Source: an uncultured virus (IMG/VR IMGVR_UViG_3300006484_000009) (taxonomy: Duplodnaviria; Heunggongvirae; Uroviricota; Caudoviricetes). Taken from it: a stretch of 64,000 nt of DNA. Positions 3,990 to 57,965 of this stretch are shown one piece after another. Position numbers and translations under genes: made by a program. The stretch's first letter is position 1; each line of letters starts with the position of its first letter. Location: IMG/VR virus record IMGVR_UViG_3300006484_000009; one strand, written 5' to 3'. The notes under the pieces were generated by a model. It saw only the letters and a program-made list of their open reading frames with translations. It was not told the DNA's origin and searched no databases.

Positions 3990-4005
3990 ATATTTATGTT
4001 TTATT

Positions 4006-4035
4006 ATAAATATTAAGATATTTGAATATATTTAT
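4006..4035. promoter_or_regulatory. Divergent pair of putative late promoters (ATATTTAT on each coding strand)
   Basis: ataaatat at 4006-4013 for the minus gene; atatttat at 4028-4035 for the plus gene. Confidence 0.65.
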
Positions 4036-4050
4036 TATTAAAATATATTT

Positions 4051-5740: not shown

Positions 5741-6304
5741 ATGAATATACCACAACCAATAGACGTAAGTAGACTTAAAGGTATTTTAGGTAACGCAAAA
5801 ACATTAATGGCCAAAGTGGAAACTGGTAATTATGAAACTGGACATGTTGATGGTAGAGCATTAACTGAAGAAGGAGTTAAACAATTACAAGCTGAAGGTG
5901 TAAGAAGACCAAGTACTCAAAGTCAACCTCAAATTAATGAATCAAATATTAAAAATTCAAGATTACCAGAATCGATTAAAAAAGCAATGTTGGAAAATCC
6001 AATAGCACAACCAAATGGTATGACACATACATTTACACTTGATGATGTTTATGATATAGCCGATGAAAAACCAATGCCATTACCACAAGCTAGAAAACAA
6101 TCAGTTCATGAAAATGTAAATTATCAACAACCACAACAAAATGTTGTTGGGTATAATGATAATGAATTAAGAGCAATGATGAAAGATGTTTTAATTGAAT
6201 ACTTATCAAATGAATACTCAAAAAATTTAACTGAGTCAGTAATTAAACAAACCATTTCAACATTAATTAACGAAGGTAAGATTACAACTAAGAAAAAAAT
6301 ATAA
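5741..6304 (+). CDS. Hypothetical phage protein
   Basis: ORF track. Confidence 0.8.
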   Translation: MNIPQPIDVSRLKGILGNAKTLMAKVETGNYETGHVDGRALTEEGVKQLQAEGVRRPSTQSQPQINESNIKNSRLPESIKKAMLENPIAQPNGMTHTFTLDDVYDIADEKPMPLPQARKQSVHENVNYQQPQQNVVGYNDNELRAMMKDVLIEYLSNEYSKNLTESVIKQTISTLINEGKITTKKKI

Positions 6305-6323: not shown

Positions 6324-6352
6324 AAAAAAGGGGAGGTAACTTCCCTTTTTTC
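6324..6352 (+). terminator. Intrinsic terminator (possibly bidirectional)
   Basis: AAAAAGGGGAG-GTAA-CTTCCCTTTTTT. Confidence 0.8.
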
Positions 6353-6437
6353 ATTTACATTATGTACCATATGATATAATTGGTGTATAGTATTTAGATT
6401 TTTTCAATTATATAAATATTTATAATAAAAAAACTAT

Positions 6438-7334
6438 ATGGATAAATTAATTGAAAATAAAATAATAGAACTTTATTTAAGCGGAATTGGGTCAACAACA
6501 ATAGTTAAATTAACTAATATACCCAAACGTAAAATTTTAAATTTACTAAAAAATAAAAATATACTAAGAAATAGACATCATAGTAATGATTTTTATAATC
6601 AATTTTGGAATGAAGATGATATGTGGTGTGGTAATTGGGTTTGTGAAATGTGTAATGAAACAATTAAATTTTGTGTAAATAATAAAGTTTATTTAAATAG
6701 GAATTTAAATAAAAAGAAAATATGTAAAAGTTGTGCAAACAAAAATCAAATGGGTGAAAACAACTCATTTTATAGTAAAAAACATACTGAAAATAGTAAA
6801 AAATTAATATCGGAAAAAAAAATAGGTATTAAGACTAGTGACCACATGAGCACCGATAAATATAGAAAAATAGTTAGTGATTTAGCCAAAGAAAGGTGGC
6901 AAAGTGGTAAAATGGAAAAAACTAGATTAAAATTAAGTCAAATGATGAAAGACAAACACGCTAACGGTGAATTAAAATCAATAAATAGGTCAAAACCTGA
7001 ATTTGAAATAATTGAATATTTAGAAAGTATTAATATAAAATGTGAACCAAGTTATAATGTGGAATCAAAAATATTTGACATATATATACCTAAATATAAT
7101 TTATTAATAGAATATAATGGTGATTATTGGCATTGTAACCCTAAAAAATATGAGGCTGATTATTATAATAAGAAAAAAAATAAAACTGCTAAAGAAATAT
7201 GGGAATATGATAAAAATAAACTTTACTTAGCAAAAAAATATGATTATAATTGTATTGTAATTTGGGAAACAGATTACAAAAAAAATAAAAATATAATAAA
7301 AGAAATTTTTAATAATTATGAACAAATTAAATAA
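6438..7334 (+). mobile_element. Free-standing putative homing endonuclease (Zn-binding CxxC pairs, NUMOD3, Vsr/DUF559-like PD-(D/E)XK domain)
   Basis: CEMC/CKSC; GENNSFYSKKHTENSKKLIS (NUMOD3); FDIYIPKYNLLIEYNGDYWH...IVIWE; own ATATTTAT motif at 6416-6423. Confidence 0.75.
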
Positions 7335-8617
7335 TATGACCCCAGACAGTCGAAAAAAAACTAAGGTATTAGTAGTACCTAGCGACAGGTCTGGGGTCGG
7401 CTGAAGGTTATTTCAGAAGTGTTGCCCCACATGTTGGGTTAGAAAGATTCTACCCAGAAGAATTCCATGTTGATATTAATGAAACCCCAGATTTAAATAA
7501 TGATGAATTTTTAAAACAATATGATATTGTACATTATCATAGAAATTTAGGTCAATATGAACAAATGCCTAGTTTATTAGAAAAATTAAAATCAATGGGT
7601 ATTGTAACGATTATGGATTTAGATGACTATTGGGCACCAGGTCAACACCACCCAGCGTATTTGATTATTAAAAATTCTAAAATGTCTGAAAAAATTCTAG
7701 CAAATATTAAAATTGCTGAAAACATTACAACAACTACAGATGTTTTTGCAAGTGAAATTGGGAAATATAATAAAAAAGTTTTTGTATTGCCAAACGCAAT
7801 TGACCCAACTGAAAAACAATACACACCAAATCCAGAAAAATCTGATAGAATTAGAATTGGGTGGTTAGGTGGTAGCTCACACTTAGAAGATTTAAAACTT
7901 TTAAGTGGGTTAGTTAATAAACTTAAATCAGATGGTTTGATGGATAAAATACAATTTGTATTATGTGGTTTTGATTTAAGAGGTAATGTCACAATGATTG
8001 ACCCTAAAACTGGTGAACAAACGCAAAGACCAATTAAGCCTATGGAAAGTGTATGGTATGAATATGAAAAAATCTTTACGGATAACTATTCAAGCGTTAG
8101 TGAAGGTTATAAAAAACATTTATTATCATTCACAAAAGATGAATATCATGATATAGCTAATGAACCATACAGAAGAGTCTGGACTAAACCAGTTAGCACA
8201 TATGCTACTAATTATAACCTATTTGATATTTCATTAGCACCATTGGCTGATAATCTTTTTAACAAAGTTAAATCACAATTAAAAGTGATTGAATCTGCTT
8301 TCCATAAAAAAGCATTGATTGCTCAAGACTTTGGACCATATCAAATTGATTTGGTTAACGCTAGAGTTAAATCTTTAGATAAAAATAACCCAGTAACATT
8401 TGATGGGACGGGTAACGCTTATTTAGTTAATAATAATGCTAAAGAATGGCATCAGTTTGTTAAAAGATTAATAAATAATCCAGAACAAATTGAAATACTA
8501 TCAAATAATTTATATAATACTATAAAAGATAAATATTCTATTGAAGCTGTTTCTAAACAACGTAGAGAATTATATTTATCACTATTAAAAGAAAAGCAAA
8601 ATGGTAATATTCAGTGA
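7318..8617 (+). CDS. GT-B (GT4-like) glycosyltransferase whose true N-terminus lies in another frame (7318/7336-7401), joined by putative recoding at 7399-7408
   Basis: Frame 1: ...KTKVLVVPSDRSGVG*. Frame 2 from 7406: GYFRSVAPHVGLE..., continuing without a stop into ORF 7565-8617 (MDLDDYW, IGWLGGSSH, KSQLKVIES). Confidence 0.75.
7338..7416 (+). promoter_or_regulatory. Two RNA hairpins around the recoding site
   Basis: GACCCCAGAC (7338-7347) pairs perfectly with GTCTGGGGTC (7389-7398), with inner GTCG/CGAC and AGGTAT/GTACCT stems. CTGAAG-GTTA-TTTCAG (7401-7416) contains the TGA. Confidence 0.75.
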
Positions 8618-32526: not shown

Positions 32527-32556
32527 TATTTCTAGATATTTATTAATAAAAGGAAA

Positions 32557-35863: not shown

Positions 35864-35892
35864 ATTCTTTTTAATTATAAATATCTAAAAAT

Positions 35893-36576
35893 TTATAAAA
35901 GTTTTGTCCCCTTGCTCAAATTATCTGACTCCCACAATGGTTGAAGATTATCCAAACACCAACATAATTTAAACTCTCTATCATCTGTAGTTTCAAAATT
36001 AAAACTAGTCATCGGTATCTTATGGTCAACGTGCCACTCACCGTAATTATCCCATGTCATCCCCTCTGTAAATTGTTTTTCTAAATGAGACATCAATTCC
36101 TCTAACGTGTAACCTAACAATTCAAATGTGGAACGATACTTAGCAACATTACGTTCTTTTAAACATGTCCACACAGCTGTTCGTGTCCTTACACCTAAAC
36201 GATATTTTGGGTCAACACGTCTACGATTACGCTCATAATCACGTTTGTATTTATCAACATGTACCTTATTCAACTCTCGCCAATTACTATGTGTTTTACG
36301 CAGATGTTCTCTATTTTCTTTAGACCACTCTTTATGGTATTCACTGAGTTTATCTTTATTCTTAGTTATATATCGTTTATCAGCTGCTGATTTACCGCCA
36401 ATATTTCTTCGACCAGATTGACCCATTACAATACCATTCTCCTTTAGTGTTCTATTGATAACAGCTTTATGTACTTTAAATGCTTCACCAATTGATGGTG
36501 TACCCATTTTTTCCTCTACATACATTCTGATTATCTCTTTTGTATCTTCTTCGTTAAATACTATTTTCTTACTCAT
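35893..36576 (-). mobile_element. Free-standing HNH homing endonuclease
   Basis: MTWDNYGEWHVDHKIP...NLQPLWESDNLSK; N-terminal HTH-like segment. Confidence 0.85.
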
Positions 36577-36723: not shown

Positions 36724-38505
36724 TTATCTTAATTCATTGATGTTAAATGTTGGTACACCATCAACTCTTACATGTCCGTAAAAACGGTTGTTCACAACTT
36801 TTTTTGCATATCTCGTCATAATTCCCTTTACTGGTGCAAAGTTGAACGGGTTATACATTGTAGGTGTAAGTTGCATTGGCACGTATGGTGCGTAGATGTA
36901 ACCTGTATCTAACAATGATTTTCCTTTATGACCGATAATCATTGAGTAGAAAGGTGCATATGGGTCACGGTACACTTGGTAACGACCTGACAATGAACCT
37001 ACTCTTTCAATACCCATGTTGTATTGGTCTTGCTCTGGGTTAGCATCACTTACGTGGAAGTACTCTAAATCATCCATGATTGCAGATATTTCAGAAGAAA
37101 TTACGATAAAGTTAGCACCACCTCTAAGGGTTGATTTGTGAATTTGTGCTGAAATTTGGTTAACTTTAGTAATTAAAGTTTGATTCCAGTCTTTTTGCGT
37201 GTATGGACTAGCAGCTGAAGAAGCTTTTCTCCATCCGTTATAATCCCAACGTAATTGCCATGCAGCAGCTTTTCTTAAGTCTCTTAAGATTTCACGGTCA
37301 ATTTCAGCAGCAACTTGCTCAGAAAGCATAGCTGTTAATTCTGCCTCAGCATCGATGTTGTGGAATGCACTAACATCTTGAGCTAATTCTGGAGACCATG
37401 TAGCTCTTAGTTTTCTTTCTTCTACAGAAACAACAACTTCATCCAATTTGAATGATACTTCACCCATTTCAGTTTCTAATTCTAATGAATCATAACGTCC
37501 CCAAGCGATTGAGAAATCAAGAGCCGTTGTAGTTGTACCAGTAACACCAACATAACCATCGTAAGTTGGAGTAGTAACAGCTGGGTGAGTTAAATCTAAT
37601 TCAACATACATAACACCAACAGCGTCACAGATATCACCATAAGAAACGATACCTTTACCATATTTTTGTGTTACTAATCTGAATGGAACTGAACCATTAG
37701 CAGCAACAACTGCAAAACCATCTTGGTCAAGTAATGTATTGTCAGAAACAATGATTAATGATGCTAAGAAAGCTTCAGTATCCATTTCGTTTCCGTCTGG
37801 ACCTGTTAATCTACCAGCTCTAACGTCAGAGAAACCAGAGATTGCAATAATTGCATTTCTAATTGAACCATCAGTTGCAGTAGGTAGGAAAGAAAAATCA
37901 GCAACTGTATTAAAGTTACCATTAGTACCTAAAGTTTTCAATACACCATCACCAACTGCGATAGTCAATGTACCTTTAGAGTTATCAAACATACCATCGT
38001 TGTAGAAAATATCGTACAAGTTTTTAGCTTGGTATGGAGTTACTGTACAACCGTCAACTGGTTGAACACAACTTGGTAATTGGTCACCCATACCTGTGTG
38101 TGCAGAGTAAGTAGTACCGTAAGGTGTTGTAGCGTAATTATCACCAGCGTTTCCGTTAGCATCAACTCTTGAAGAAGTTTGAGGTACGAAGAAAAACAAT
38201 TTACCGATTGGCATGTTCATAGCTTGTACAGATACTACATCATTAGCTAATAATTTAGAGAAAACTCTTCTTACGATTGGGAAAACTACAGTTTCGAAAG
38301 AACCTGAAGACGTAGAGTCTGTAGCTTCAGTTAAAATTGAAGAAGCTTGGTTCTCATATAACTGAGCAACGTTTTCCTTAATGTGGCCCTTAAGACCTTC
38401 CAAGAATCCTAAAGATTCCCATTTAGATTGTGTTTGTCTACGGATTTCCTTCATGTGGTTTAATCCGATGTTTCCAACTTGTCCTGAGTTTAAAAATTGT
38501 GACAT
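36724..38505 (-). CDS. Major capsid protein (T4 gp23-like)
   Basis: VSVQAM, RKLRATWSPELAQD...HNIDAEAEL...EIDREI, YAPYVP, GIMTRY. Confidence 0.95.
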   Translation of the reverse strand: MSQFLNSGQVGNIGLNHMKEIRRQTQSKWESLGFLEGLKGHIKENVAQLYENQASSILTEATDSTSSGSFETVVFPIVRRVFSKLLANDVVSVQAMNMPIGKLFFFVPQTSSRVDANGNAGDNYATTPYGTTYSAHTGMGDQLPSCVQPVDGCTVTPYQAKNLYDIFYNDGMFDNSKGTLTIAVGDGVLKTLGTNGNFNTVADFSFLPTATDGSIRNAIIAISGFSDVRAGRLTGPDGNEMDTEAFLASLIIVSDNTLLDQDGFAVVAANGSVPFRLVTQKYGKGIVSYGDICDAVGVMYVELDLTHPAVTTPTYDGYVGVTGTTTTALDFSIAWGRYDSLELETEMGEVSFKLDEVVVSVEERKLRATWSPELAQDVSAFHNIDAEAELTAMLSEQVAAEIDREILRDLRKAAAWQLRWDYNGWRKASSAASPYTQKDWNQTLITKVNQISAQIHKSTLRGGANFIVISSEISAIMDDLEYFHVSDANPEQDQYNMGIERVGSLSGRYQVYRDPYAPFYSMIIGHKGKSLLDTGYIYAPYVPMQLTPTMYNPFNFAPVKGIMTRYAKKVVNNRFYGHVRVDGVPTFNINELR

Positions 38506-42729: not shown

Positions 42730-42772
42730 AATTCTTTTTTATTATAAATATGGTAAAATAGTTTAAAAAATT

Positions 42773-46884: not shown

Positions 46885-46922
46885 AGGTTTTTATTAATAA
46901 ATATGTGAAAACACGCAAAAAC

Positions 46923-53052: not shown

Positions 53053-54306
53053 TTAATTGCTTAGTGGTGCTTTAATTGTTGGGTGTGATTGGTAGTCTTT
53101 TAAGATAAATCCATCTAACTCGTAATTATCAATATATGTTTCTTTTTCATATTTGAAAAATAATTTTGGTAGTGTATATGGTTCTCTTGTTCGTGTTGGT
53201 ATATTCCATTGGTCAATTTCAGAATGCGATAATGTACTACTGTCTCCACCGTTATAAATTTGATTAAACATTTCTTGATTAACCATCGCTCTTCGTTCAT
53301 CTAAAGTTAACTCTCTACCAATCTGTTCCTTTGCTTGTTCAACATGATTCAAATACAAATGTGTATCACCCAAGTTACCAATCAATTCATCAGGAACCAT
53401 ATTGACTTCCTTAGCAATGATTTCTAATAACAAACCATAAGATGCAATATTGAATGGTAAACCTAAGAATGTATCTACTGAACGTTGATTCCACATTAAA
53501 GAGATTGCTCGTTTAGGAATGTTAAATGAGTTTAGTTTTTTATGACCTTCATAACTTTCTACATAATCAATCTCCCACATTCCTCGTTTGCCTGTTTCAT
53601 TTTGATTTTGTTGATACCATAGTTCAATACGTTCTTCCAAACTCAACACTCTTGTAAAAAACTGAAAATCTGTATGACAAGGGGGTAATACCATTTCATT
53701 TAATTCACCAACATTCCAAGCAGAAACTCTATTGCGTCTGGAGTCTGGGTCTGTTTTAAGTAAATTGATTGCGTTTTGTATTTGGTCTGTTCCTTTAATA
53801 CCGTAACCTCTTTCTTCAGTTTGAGGCTCATAACCCCAATTTCTCCATTGTTTACCATACACTGGACCTAATTCACCCCACTTGTTAGCAAACTCATCAT
53901 TAGTTTTTATTTTATTAATAAATTCTTCTTGTGTTAATAATCTTGAAGTTGCATTATAAATAGGTCCTTCTACAATAACTATATCTTTATTAATTTCTAA
54001 ATTAAGATTTATGTTTTGATTTTTGTTAATAAAATTTTTATACGCATCACCATCCCAAATGTGACAATTATTATCAATAAGATATTTAATGTTTGTATCA
54101 CCACGTAAAAACCACAACAATTCTGTTACAATTCCTTTGAAATACATCTTTTTTGATGTAATCAGTGGAAAACCATCTGACATCTTGTGTCTGATTTGCC
54201 TTCCGAATACAGATATCGTACCTGTTCCAGTACGGTCTTGCTTGGTTACTCCGTTATCTAGGATATCTTGGAGTAGGTCTGTGTATTGTTTATCTAGTTT
54301 GTTCAT
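53053..54306 (-). CDS. thyA: Thymidylate synthase with insertions
   Basis: DRTGTGT, ELLWFLRG, LGPVYG.QWR, LPPCH, QRSVDTFLGLPFNIASY, DTHLY.NH. Confidence 0.95.
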   Translation of the reverse strand: MNKLDKQYTDLLQDILDNGVTKQDRTGTGTISVFGRQIRHKMSDGFPLITSKKMYFKGIVTELLWFLRGDTNIKYLIDNNCHIWDGDAYKNFINKNQNINLNLEINKDIVIVEGPIYNATSRLLTQEEFINKIKTNDEFANKWGELGPVYGKQWRNWGYEPQTEERGYGIKGTDQIQNAINLLKTDPDSRRNRVSAWNVGELNEMVLPPCHTDFQFFTRVLSLEERIELWYQQNQNETGKRGMWEIDYVESYEGHKKLNSFNIPKRAISLMWNQRSVDTFLGLPFNIASYGLLLEIIAKEVNMVPDELIGNLGDTHLYLNHVEQAKEQIGRELTLDERRAMVNQEMFNQIYNGGDSSTLSHSEIDQWNIPTRTREPYTLPKLFFKYEKETYIDNYELDGFILKDYQSHPTIKAPLSN

Positions 54307-57951: not shown

Positions 57952-57965
57952 ATATATTTATAATT

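Follow-up and report, generated by a model that had tools for sequence, protein, structure and literature searches.

A probable mobile homing-endonuclease cassette with a putative ribosome-bypassed gap near the start of a phage glycosyltransferase gene

Introduction

Among phages, programmed translational bypassing is known from a single case, gene 60 of T4 together with its MobA element (10.1101/2022.08.31.505936). The preprint on that element describes an HNH endonuclease gene overlapped in another frame by an N-terminal extension, together with a replacement homologous region and a bypass cassette. At its 3′ side the element terminates with the landing codon or shortly past it, and the MobA site is interrupted by the bypass. 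Progressive loss of the nuclease leaves the bypass in place, and every MobA-type case reported there is in a topoisomerase gene (10.1101/2022.08.31.505936). In the present study, we analyzed a 64,000-nucleotide (nt) stretch of IMGVR_UViG_3300006484_000009 (hereafter the window, to which all coordinates refer unless a locus is named) together with relatives from IMG/VR, whose contigs or loci are labelled L followed by a number. We consider it probable that the window holds a mobile homing-endonuclease cassette (approximately 6397 to 7408/7422) at the GVG/YF codons near the start of a glycosyltransferase (GT) gene, and that ribosomes hop over the coding gap that comes with it.

The free-standing homing endonucleases of T4 (seg, mob) cut a neighbouring conserved gene, the flanks are co-converted, and immunity comes from differences in the target sequence. 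The locus described here shares with them the placement of the nuclease gene between, or at the edge of, conserved genes; it differs in that the proposed immunity difference would be a frame-breaking insertion that needs recoding, and in that the cassette brings its own copy of the gene start. For the EDxHD family of endonucleases, the work on I-Bth0305I places DNA-binding modules N-terminal to the nuclease domain and reports that specificity is highest across the central bases spanning the cleavage/insertion site, single substitutions mattering little (PMC3239194).

The locus and its likeness to described elements

The features of the locus are as follows, in the order of their left ends.

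6324 to 6351, + strand: intrinsic terminator of the upstream gene (5741–6304), with a 12-bp stem and a T run; it aligns with the terminators of L006 and L009.
6362 to 6396, + strand: decayed stub of the original GT 5′ end, aligned with the intact stubs of L081 and L109 and with the naive GT starts of L009 and L028.
6397 to 6437, + strand: cassette-specific endonuclease leader, with ATATTTATAA at 6416–6425; common to L081 and L109, absent from naive alleles.
6438 to 7334, + strand: free-standing homing-type endonuclease of 298 amino acids, with a helix-turn-helix (HTH), a zinc finger, NUMOD3 and a C-terminal Vsr/I-Bth0305I-like (EDxHD-type) nuclease domain.
7194 to 7422, + strand: block 99% identical to L006; its right end, 7422, is the 3′ recombination boundary of the cassette, 14 nt past the landing triplet.
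7318 to 7362, + strand: cassette-borne N-terminal extension of the GT, MNKLNNMTPDSRKKT, absent from the uninterrupted close relatives L008 and L009.
7338 to 7398, + strand: 5′ stem-loop obtained by RNA folding, ending directly 5′ of the take-off codon.
7363 to 7401, + strand: cassette-borne replacement copy of the first conserved GT codons, KVLVVPSDRSGVG, ending in the take-off codon GGC 7399–7401.
7402 to 7408, + strand: 7-nt coding gap TGAAGGT, made up of the stop TGA 7402–7404, an A, and the landing triplet GGT 7406–7408.
7409 to 8617, + strand: GT body of 402 codons, resuming with TAT TTC AGA (YFR) and ending with the stop TGA 8615–8617.

The open reading frame (ORF) of the endonuclease is intact and ends with TAA at 7332–7334. 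The GT frame starts inside its last codons, at ATG 7318–7320 (a second in-frame ATG is at 7336), and the N-terminal extension, which encodes the 5′ hairpin arm, thus shares 17 nt with the endonuclease ORF in a different frame. From ATG 7318, the GT frame reads MNKLNNMTPDSRKKTKVLVVPSDRSGVG and ends at TGA 7402–7404 after GGG GTC GGC, and the body, beginning YFRSVAPH..., is picked up in the +1 frame at TAT 7409 and runs to 8617; it matches the glycosyltransferase family PHROG 7162 (E 6e-41). A preliminary description of this DNA had named the overlap of the endonuclease with the GT start, a 7-nt disruption of the GT and a large hairpin with its 5′ arm in the first GT codons, and all three were confirmed. 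It had also placed the endonuclease between a terminator and the GT gene and had assigned it a promoter motif of its own. The terminator was recovered (1 found in the scan vs 0.2 expected in shuffles) and forms the left flank common to cassette-free relatives, but the stretch that follows is not plain spacer, as it holds the GT stub. As for the promoter, an enriched motif, ATATTTATAA, does precede the endonuclease ATG by 13 nt, but sigma-70-type promoter matches in the window were at chance level (12 found vs 11.4 expected).

Compared with the MobA element and gene 60 (10.1101/2022.08.31.505936), the locus has the same succession of an endonuclease gene, an N-terminal extension overlapping it out of frame, and a replacement copy of the target codons. 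As in MobA/gene 60, a stop opens the coding gap after take-off, the take-off and landing codons are matched, and a 5′ stem-loop is present. The window-type element ends at or just after the landing codon (0 to approximately 20 nt), as the MobA element does; both are patchy among close relatives, and in both the nuclease is progressively lost and the bypass kept, L004 and L005 being likely hit-and-run relics of the window type. The differences are that MobA is an HNH enzyme of topoisomerase genes, whereas the window system has a Vsr/EDxHD-like fold and a glycosyltransferase target; that MobA splits its gene, whereas here the GT start is replaced and the old start left as a stub; and that the gap of gene 60 is approximately 50 nt, whereas the GT gaps are 5–13 nt and the GT 5′ hairpin is much larger (approximately 60 nt, −25 to −34 kcal/mol), reaching right up to the take-off codon. 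Unlike gene 60, with its take-off stem-loop and internal Shine–Dalgarno-like sequence, the GT alleles showed no conserved take-off stem-loop or internal Shine–Dalgarno sequence, and, unlike for MobA, related GT-cassette lineages exist without any gap. The locus shares the logic and layout of the MobA element and differs in fold, target, gap length, hairpin size and start replacement; the comparisons support reading it as a homing-endonuclease-plus-recoding cassette analogous to mobA/gene 60. In the literature that we searched, only gene 60 bypassing was found and none in a glycosyltransferase, although the supplements of the preprint could list non-topoisomerase cases.

Gap alleles at one codon junction of the GT gene

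Among the best 80 of 220 hits of a GT-based IMG/VR scan, the junction was readable in 79 loci. The gene was uninterrupted in 72 of them (...PSDRTGVG-YFRS...), whereas 7 loci, representing 5 distinct alleles, were interrupted at exactly the GVG/YFR boundary. A DNA pattern written from the gap alleles retrieved 21 IMG/VR contigs, every one a GT junction with a gap, and further loci were added by an IMG/VR scan with the endonuclease protein. The total came to 29 distinct gap alleles, all at this one codon junction, with gap lengths of 5, 6, 7, 8, 9, 10 and 13 nt. A phage GenBank collection held only distant GT relatives (best 32% identity) and no close relative of the locus.

The take-off codon (GGC, GGT, AGC or AGT) was immediately followed by a stop, TGA or TAA, in 29 of 29 alleles. 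The landing triplet, i.e. the last three bases of the gap, agreed with the take-off codon at the first two positions in 28 of 29, with all 19 GGY take-offs landing on GGN and 9 of 10 AGY take-offs landing on AGN. When the gap was skipped, the uninterrupted GVG/S-(Y/K/F)FR motif was restored in every allele with zero residues added. Many alleles carried an in-frame 6-nt gap (GGC TGA GGT), and the 13-nt gaps held two stops. As we interpret the alleles, ribosomes most likely hop over the 7 extra bases in the window GT.

The 13 codons before the gap were compared among 27 distinct copies, in which 1758 synonymous and 1100 non-synonymous pairwise codon differences were counted. The Leu, Ser, Asp, Gly and Val columns before the gap were invariant, yet they were spelled by 2–5 codons each, i.e. 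the amino acids of the replacement codons were retained despite many synonymous changes. This pattern argues that the pre-gap part is translated and under protein-level selection. The displaced dead stub, which decays and in the window copy contains a stop, provides a natural control for selection on these codons. The GT body itself is intact over its 402 codons and is 83–84% identical to the bodies of close relatives.

A large stem-loop ending at the take-off codon

In the window, RNA folding of 7330–7425, which includes the hairpin at 7338–7398, gave a minimum free energy of −35.4 kcal/mol (z −5.2), and 0 of 200 shuffles folded as well. RNAalifold, applied to the 29 alleles aligned with MAFFT, gave only 8 pairs, 3 of them with double changes, and was uninformative, as indels displace the 5′ arms of different groups relative to one another. 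Each allele was therefore folded singly, over the 66 nt ending with the take-off codon. The 28 distinct gap alleles that were folded lay between −25 and −34 kcal/mol (mean −29.8), as against a mean of −7.0 and a best value of −21.2 kcal/mol (L004) for 56 distinct gap-free alleles, so that the two groups did not overlap (U = 0, p 1e-13). The arms varied among alleles yet remained complementary (CCCCAGAC/GTCTGGGG, CCCCAGTT/AACTGGGG and ACTCCAG/CTGGAGT). The 5′ arm sits in the N-terminal extension, which the gap-free alleles lack.

A smaller stem-loop (CUGAAG/UUUCAG) is found at 7401–7416 of the window, with the stop and the landing triplet inside it. Several alleles have a GCUGA that pairs with UCAG(U) further downstream; the pairing is not seen in the GGT-TAA alleles.

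In the uninterrupted alleles L004 (3935–4000) and L005, the N-terminal extension is of the cassette type (APVGRK...) and the hairpin is weakened (−21.2 kcal/mol in L004); both alleles lack a gap and an endonuclease. They probably represent a hit-and-run relic left after precise loss of the gap.

Cassette boundaries and mobility

The stub at 6362–6396 of the window reads ATG .. GTA CCA TAT GAT ATA ATT GGT GTA TAG TAT TTA, to be compared with V P S D R T G V G Y F; its translation in this frame is VPYDIIGV(stop)YL, followed by DFF past the junction. A stub of the original GT start is intact upstream of the endonuclease in L081 (MKKLKVLVVPSDRTGVSYF), L084, L103 and L109, and a more decayed, PFDRTG-like stub lies 5′ of the endonuclease in the KFRS-type clade. 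The stubs end in GVS-YF (L081), GVS-FL (L084), GVG-Y (L103), GVS-YL (L109) and GV(stop)-YL (window), and the cassette-specific sequence common to the window, L081 and L109 starts directly after TAY-TT.

At the 3′ side, the breaks lie at the landing codon in the pair L026/L025, 14 nt after it in window/L006 and approximately 15–20 nt after it in L125/L148. L026 and its near-identical sister L025 (approximately 95% flank identity) differ only in a block of approximately 145 nt that ends at the landing codon. In the window, 227 of 229 positions of 7194–7422 are identical to L006, as against 971 of 1175 in the GT body (82–85% per segment; p 8e-15), and the two genes upstream are 86.5% identical. 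Both cassette ends therefore map to the GVG/YF codons, and since they do, the element replaces the gene start up to these codons. Intron-less homing with a cut at or near the GVG/YF codons would produce this layout, and a cut site at these codons is strongly suggested.

In a quick tree of GT bodies (90 distinct sequences), the cassette-bearing genes were scattered among cassette-free sisters: the window and L006 group with L008, L026 with L025, and L081 with L028/L030.

Many relatives have GT homologues with in-frame insertions of approximately 370–380 amino acids (L081:4031–6340, also L084/87/97, L102–L110 and L112; L063/L064/L082/L090; L074). One of them resembles a LAGLIDADG-type intein at WLGGS/C...N/SH, and a second insertion is near residue 289. 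Because of these large insertions, the GT gene can be regarded as a hotspot for several selfish elements.

Domains and fold of the endonuclease

NUMOD3 (residues 104–125) was found above the Pfam cut-off (E 1.3e-4; 22.3 bits vs 20.4), and a match to REase_MTES_1575, of the PD-(D/E)xK type, remained below it (18.8 vs 38.2). PHROG families 559 and 3339 (HNH/homing endonuclease) matched at E 8e-15 and 2e-11. The zinc-finger/NUMOD3 part matched the DNA-binding domain of I-TevI, 1i3j (single protein E 4e-4, profile E 2e-5), and the HTH of gamma-delta resolvase was a weak profile match (E 0.044). An alignment of 23 endonuclease relatives showed an N-terminal HTH-like region, the invariant cysteines C69, C72, C96 and C99, a NUMOD3 region and, in the C-terminal part, invariant D214, E225, D229, H232 and D258, which are candidates for the catalytic E, D, H and D residues of the EDxHD family.

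The AlphaFold2 model of the endonuclease had a mean pLDDT (per-residue model confidence) of 82.8, with values of 88–95 over residues 191–290. Its best PDB match was the catalytic domain of I-Bth0305I, 3r3p_A (TM score on target 0.77, probability 1.00, E 3.8e-3, 21% identity), followed by the Vsr structures 1vsr and 1cw0; sequence-level searches with the endonuclease gave no match to 3r3p. Since the Pfam, PHROG and I-TevI sequence matches and the fold match agree, the earlier identification of the protein as a NUMOD3 plus Vsr-like endonuclease is correct. The C-terminal nuclease domain has a Vsr-like fold and the NUMOD-type modules lie N-terminal to it, both of which are EDxHD traits, and the model points to EDxHD as the nearest described family. 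I-Bth0305I is likewise phage-borne, with N-terminal NUMOD-type modules and a C-terminal Vsr-like nuclease domain, but it is intron-encoded in recA with NUMOD2 repeats, whereas the window enzyme is free-standing with a zinc finger and NUMOD3 like I-TevI (PMC3239194).

Association of the gap with the endonuclease

An endonuclease or its remnant was present upstream in 16 of the 21 gap contigs vs 1 of the 72 gap-free loci (L061; Fisher p 9e-13). Ten of the 16 endonucleases were long (at least 230 amino acids covered) and 6 were remnants. Each of the 54 endonuclease relatives with E ≤ 1e-28 immediately preceded a GT homologue, with a 3′ end that overlapped or adjoined the GT start, and the endonuclease ORF ended 37–91 nt before the end of the take-off codon. 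The 26 weaker relatives (L156–L181) matched only in the C-terminal domain and none adjoined a GT; a scan 3′ of them for the hairpin-stop-gap-landing arrangement found ordinary gene boundaries only and no hairpin stronger than −15 kcal/mol.

The remnants consist of the last codons of the endonuclease; in L006, L010, L088, L092 and L096, a remnant is all that is left of it. L006 keeps 46 endonuclease codons, 98% identical to the window, its deletion corresponding to approximately 6357–7193 of the window. In L026, the endonuclease was undetected, yet a short cassette leader, the N-terminal extension, the hairpin and the gap are retained; gap and hairpin are likewise retained without endonuclease in L063 and L086. 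Several of the cases in which gap and endonuclease disagree are products of decay that retain pieces of the endonuclease 3′ end. As to the gap state, 3 changes sufficed on the endonuclease tree as compared with a shuffled mean of 8.1, and 0 of 500 shuffles were as low; the endonucleases of the window, L084, L081, L102, L103, L109, L091 and L111 formed one clade (support 98/98).

The preliminary description had viewed endonuclease and insert as a co-inherited mobile cassette aimed at the GVG/YFR codons, with a nuclease of a family other than that of MobA. Comparative genomics bears out the co-inheritance through the association given above, the target agrees with stubs ending in GVx-Y-F and with 3′ breaks 0 to approximately 20 nt past the landing codon in three independent pairs, and the fold is EDxHD/Vsr-like and not HNH. 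The strict co-occurrence of insert and endonuclease that the description asked about was not found, the association being strong but not strict. Its further claim, that the 7 nt confer self-immunity, is plausible but would not hold universally in the family.

Proposed mechanism and the points that weigh against it

Observed directly were the anatomy and boundaries of the cassette, its patchy occurrence, the sequence signatures and the association of gap and endonuclease. The cassette consists of an EDxHD/Vsr-type endonuclease gene with I-TevI-like DNA-binding modules, a new gene start, in which the N-terminal extension is joined to the first 13 conserved codons in a different spelling, and, at the right end, the 7-nt gap (TGA A GGT); the displaced original GT start remains as the decayed stub upstream. 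In the mechanism that we propose, the enzyme would cut cassette-free alleles at or next to the GVG/YF codons and, in a mixed infection, repair from the cassette-bearing genome would copy the cassette in, i.e. by intron-less homing. The gap would lie in the rebuilt gene approximately 5 nt from the insertion point and would therefore split the site that is otherwise re-created. Translational bypassing would keep the GT functional: with GGC occupied by peptidyl-tRNA-Gly and the A site by TGA, which is decoded slowly, the tRNA would un-pair, the mRNA would slip by 7 nt, the tRNA would re-pair on GGT, and decoding would resume at TAT to give ...GVGYFR.... The 3′ arm of the hairpin ends at the take-off codon, and its re-zipping behind the ribosome probably drives the forward slip.

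Several points weigh against this account. The mechanism rests on sequence: cleavage site and activity, immunity, and the hop with its efficiency are what we infer from it. The junction finder required [PA]SD..G[VI][GSA], so that part of the observed conservation is conditioned on the motif. The pooled counts are biased because loci were sampled by GT similarity, by a pattern derived from gap alleles and by endonuclease similarity, and the allele counts are not independent events, the alleles being related by descent. The patchiness, with at least 9 changes of cassette state forced by well-supported branches, was read from the quick type of GT tree. Among the alleles, L113 is an exception, with take-off AGT and landing GGC, and the landing triplet of L086 is AGA. 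The stem-loop at the take-off site was weak and inconsistent across alleles (mean −3.4 kcal/mol, some 0).

Other points concern the link with the enzyme. Five of the 21 gap contigs had no endonuclease trace, and 21 of the 54 endonuclease-adjacent GT loci had neither gap nor hairpin (L134–138, 141–143, 145–148, 154, 155, 139, 140, 144 and 150–153). On the tree, the gap-free endonucleases comprise an outgroup (L139, L144) and two clades nested among the gap-bearing ones, and these three groups of related endonucleases at the same place weaken the self-immunity role. The nested clades have internal deletions in the NUMOD linker, of 48 amino acids in the L134/L146/L147 type (L134:762–1520, L146, L147:3001–3756) and of 20 amino acids in L141/L142 (L141:2971–3837, L142), which would be consistent with altered binding to DNA or an inactive enzyme; in the outgroup L139/L144, the linker is of full length. 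In some gap-free cassettes, the rebuilt site differs from naive sites at wobble positions only; therefore the gap is not the only, and perhaps not a necessary, way to live with the enzyme. Finally, L125 (with gap) and L148 (without gap, and with a different endonuclease lineage) have nearly identical GT bodies, and therefore the two kinds of cassette replace each other at the same site, which speaks against a strict immunity role.

Alternative explanations

The alternative that survives best, which we regard as unlikely, accepts the cassette as real and mobile and denies that gap and hairpin serve immunity: they would be a translational throttle on the GT, or a tolerated scar of cut-site repair that travels by tight linkage. 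The coexistence of related endonucleases with gap-free rebuilt sites in 21 of 54 loci fits this view, as does the finding that gap and hairpin outlast the endonuclease in L026, L063 and L086 and, apart from a remnant, in L006, L010, L088, L092 and L096; functions beyond immunity are also suspected for MobA by the authors of the preprint (10.1101/2022.08.31.505936). However, persistence of the gap after loss of the nuclease is expected anyway, because only precise deletion restores the frame. Moreover, the gap is within approximately 5 nt of the mapped insertion point, where the enzyme family is most sequence-specific, and the two nested lineages that lost the gap have altered endonucleases.

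Recoding by some means other than a hop, i.e. stop readthrough with a frameshift, an altered code or loss of the gap at the RNA level, is very unlikely. Readthrough alone could pass the in-frame 6-nt gap of many alleles, but gaps of 5, 7, 8, 10 and 13 nt need different frame changes and the 13-nt gaps hold two stops, and a hop between cognate codons is therefore the only single mechanism that fits all alleles. In addition, TGA also terminates the GT ORF itself and a slippery run is absent. As regards the RNA level, a 374-nt contig of run X17, which is only guessed to be RNA, covers 7100–7463 with 28 substitutions and no indel, and a 157-nt contig of X18, a poly-A RNA-Seq library from a sample of another organism, covers 7294–7432 with 8 substitutions, clustered in the inner loop 7353–7377 and after 7422, and no indel. 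That both contigs span the gap without indels is a weak hint against removal, since DNA may be present, and it lends weak support to the gap being present, and not removed, in the nucleic acid of other samples. The contigs compared were short and came from related variants, and the gap was left uncovered by runs X2 and X5. In 16 public DNA runs, from metagenomes of the sea and of lakes, half or more of the words sampled from 7100–7900 were present.

Still a little less probable is that the GT is a pseudogene inactivated by insertion of the endonuclease, with the 7 nt as the disabling lesion. Under the standard code, the frame is indeed broken and the 28-codon ORF ends at TGA 7402–7404. Both parts are, however, open in the 29 distinct alleles, the 402-codon body is intact and conserved relative to that of close relatives (83–84% identity), the pre-gap codons change mostly synonymously whereas the truly dead stub decays, and the matched codons and the hairpin are conserved. 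An assembly or sequencing artefact is for practical purposes refuted: although the window is a single metagenome-derived sequence, the identical allele occurs in the independent contig L006, 29 distinct alleles come from many samples, and contigs of two further runs cross the gap without indels.

Implications of a second bypass system

It is about evenly balanced whether programmed ribosome hopping exists in nature a second time, independently, in a large family of aquatic jumbo and T4-like phages, where a minimal portable signal (a hairpin of approximately 60 nt that extends up to the take-off codon, then a stop, then a cognate codon for landing 5–13 nt downstream) evolved as the self-protection patch of an EDxHD-type cassette, with mRNA refolding supplying the pull. 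If this holds, the GT locus would represent a second phage bypass system with another nuclease family, another target gene and gaps ten times shorter, and the combination of splitting the own target with repair of the message by the ribosome would have arisen more than once among homing endonucleases. Micro-gaps beside selfish nucleases would then be a general and overlooked route by which phage genes that look frameshifted stay functional. The dozens of natural variants are a ready-made mutational series for the role of the stop codon, the cognate landing and 5′ mRNA refolding in hopping. Gene callers will mis-annotate genes of the GT type as broken.

Other features of the window

Judging from its context genes (major head, portal, terminase, protease, tail fibre, PhoH, dUTPase and thymidylate synthase), the window belongs to a large tailed phage. 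The motif ATATTTATWA, represented by ATATTTATAA upstream of the endonuclease, occurs 17 times in the window vs 6.3 expected, and 0 of 100 shuffles reached 17. It is frequently located 2–15 nt upstream of ORF starts in the orientation of the gene, and it may be a phage promoter or initiation signal. Its sites include the following.

4004 to 4013, − strand: ATATTTATWA site.
4028 to 4037, + strand: ATATTTATWA site.
6416 to 6425, + strand: ATATTTATWA site of the endonuclease leader.
32536 to 32545, + strand: ATATTTATWA site.
35875 to 35884, − strand: ATATTTATWA site.
42742 to 42751, − strand: ATATTTATWA site.
46895 to 46904, − strand: ATATTTATWA site.
57954 to 57963, + strand: ATATTTATWA site.

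The T4 late-promoter word TATAAATA was at chance level in the window (26 matches vs 23 expected).

Two further ORFs, both on the − strand, were noted. One of 227 amino acids at 35896–36576, directly downstream of the major head gene (36727–38505, −), matches the PHROG family of endonuclease VII (E 1.6e-16) and is possibly a second free-standing homing endonuclease. The thymidylate synthase ORF at 53056–54306 has 417 amino acids; a 335-position profile was matched over positions 29–307 and a second family matched in two stretches, and an insertion within this enzyme is possible.

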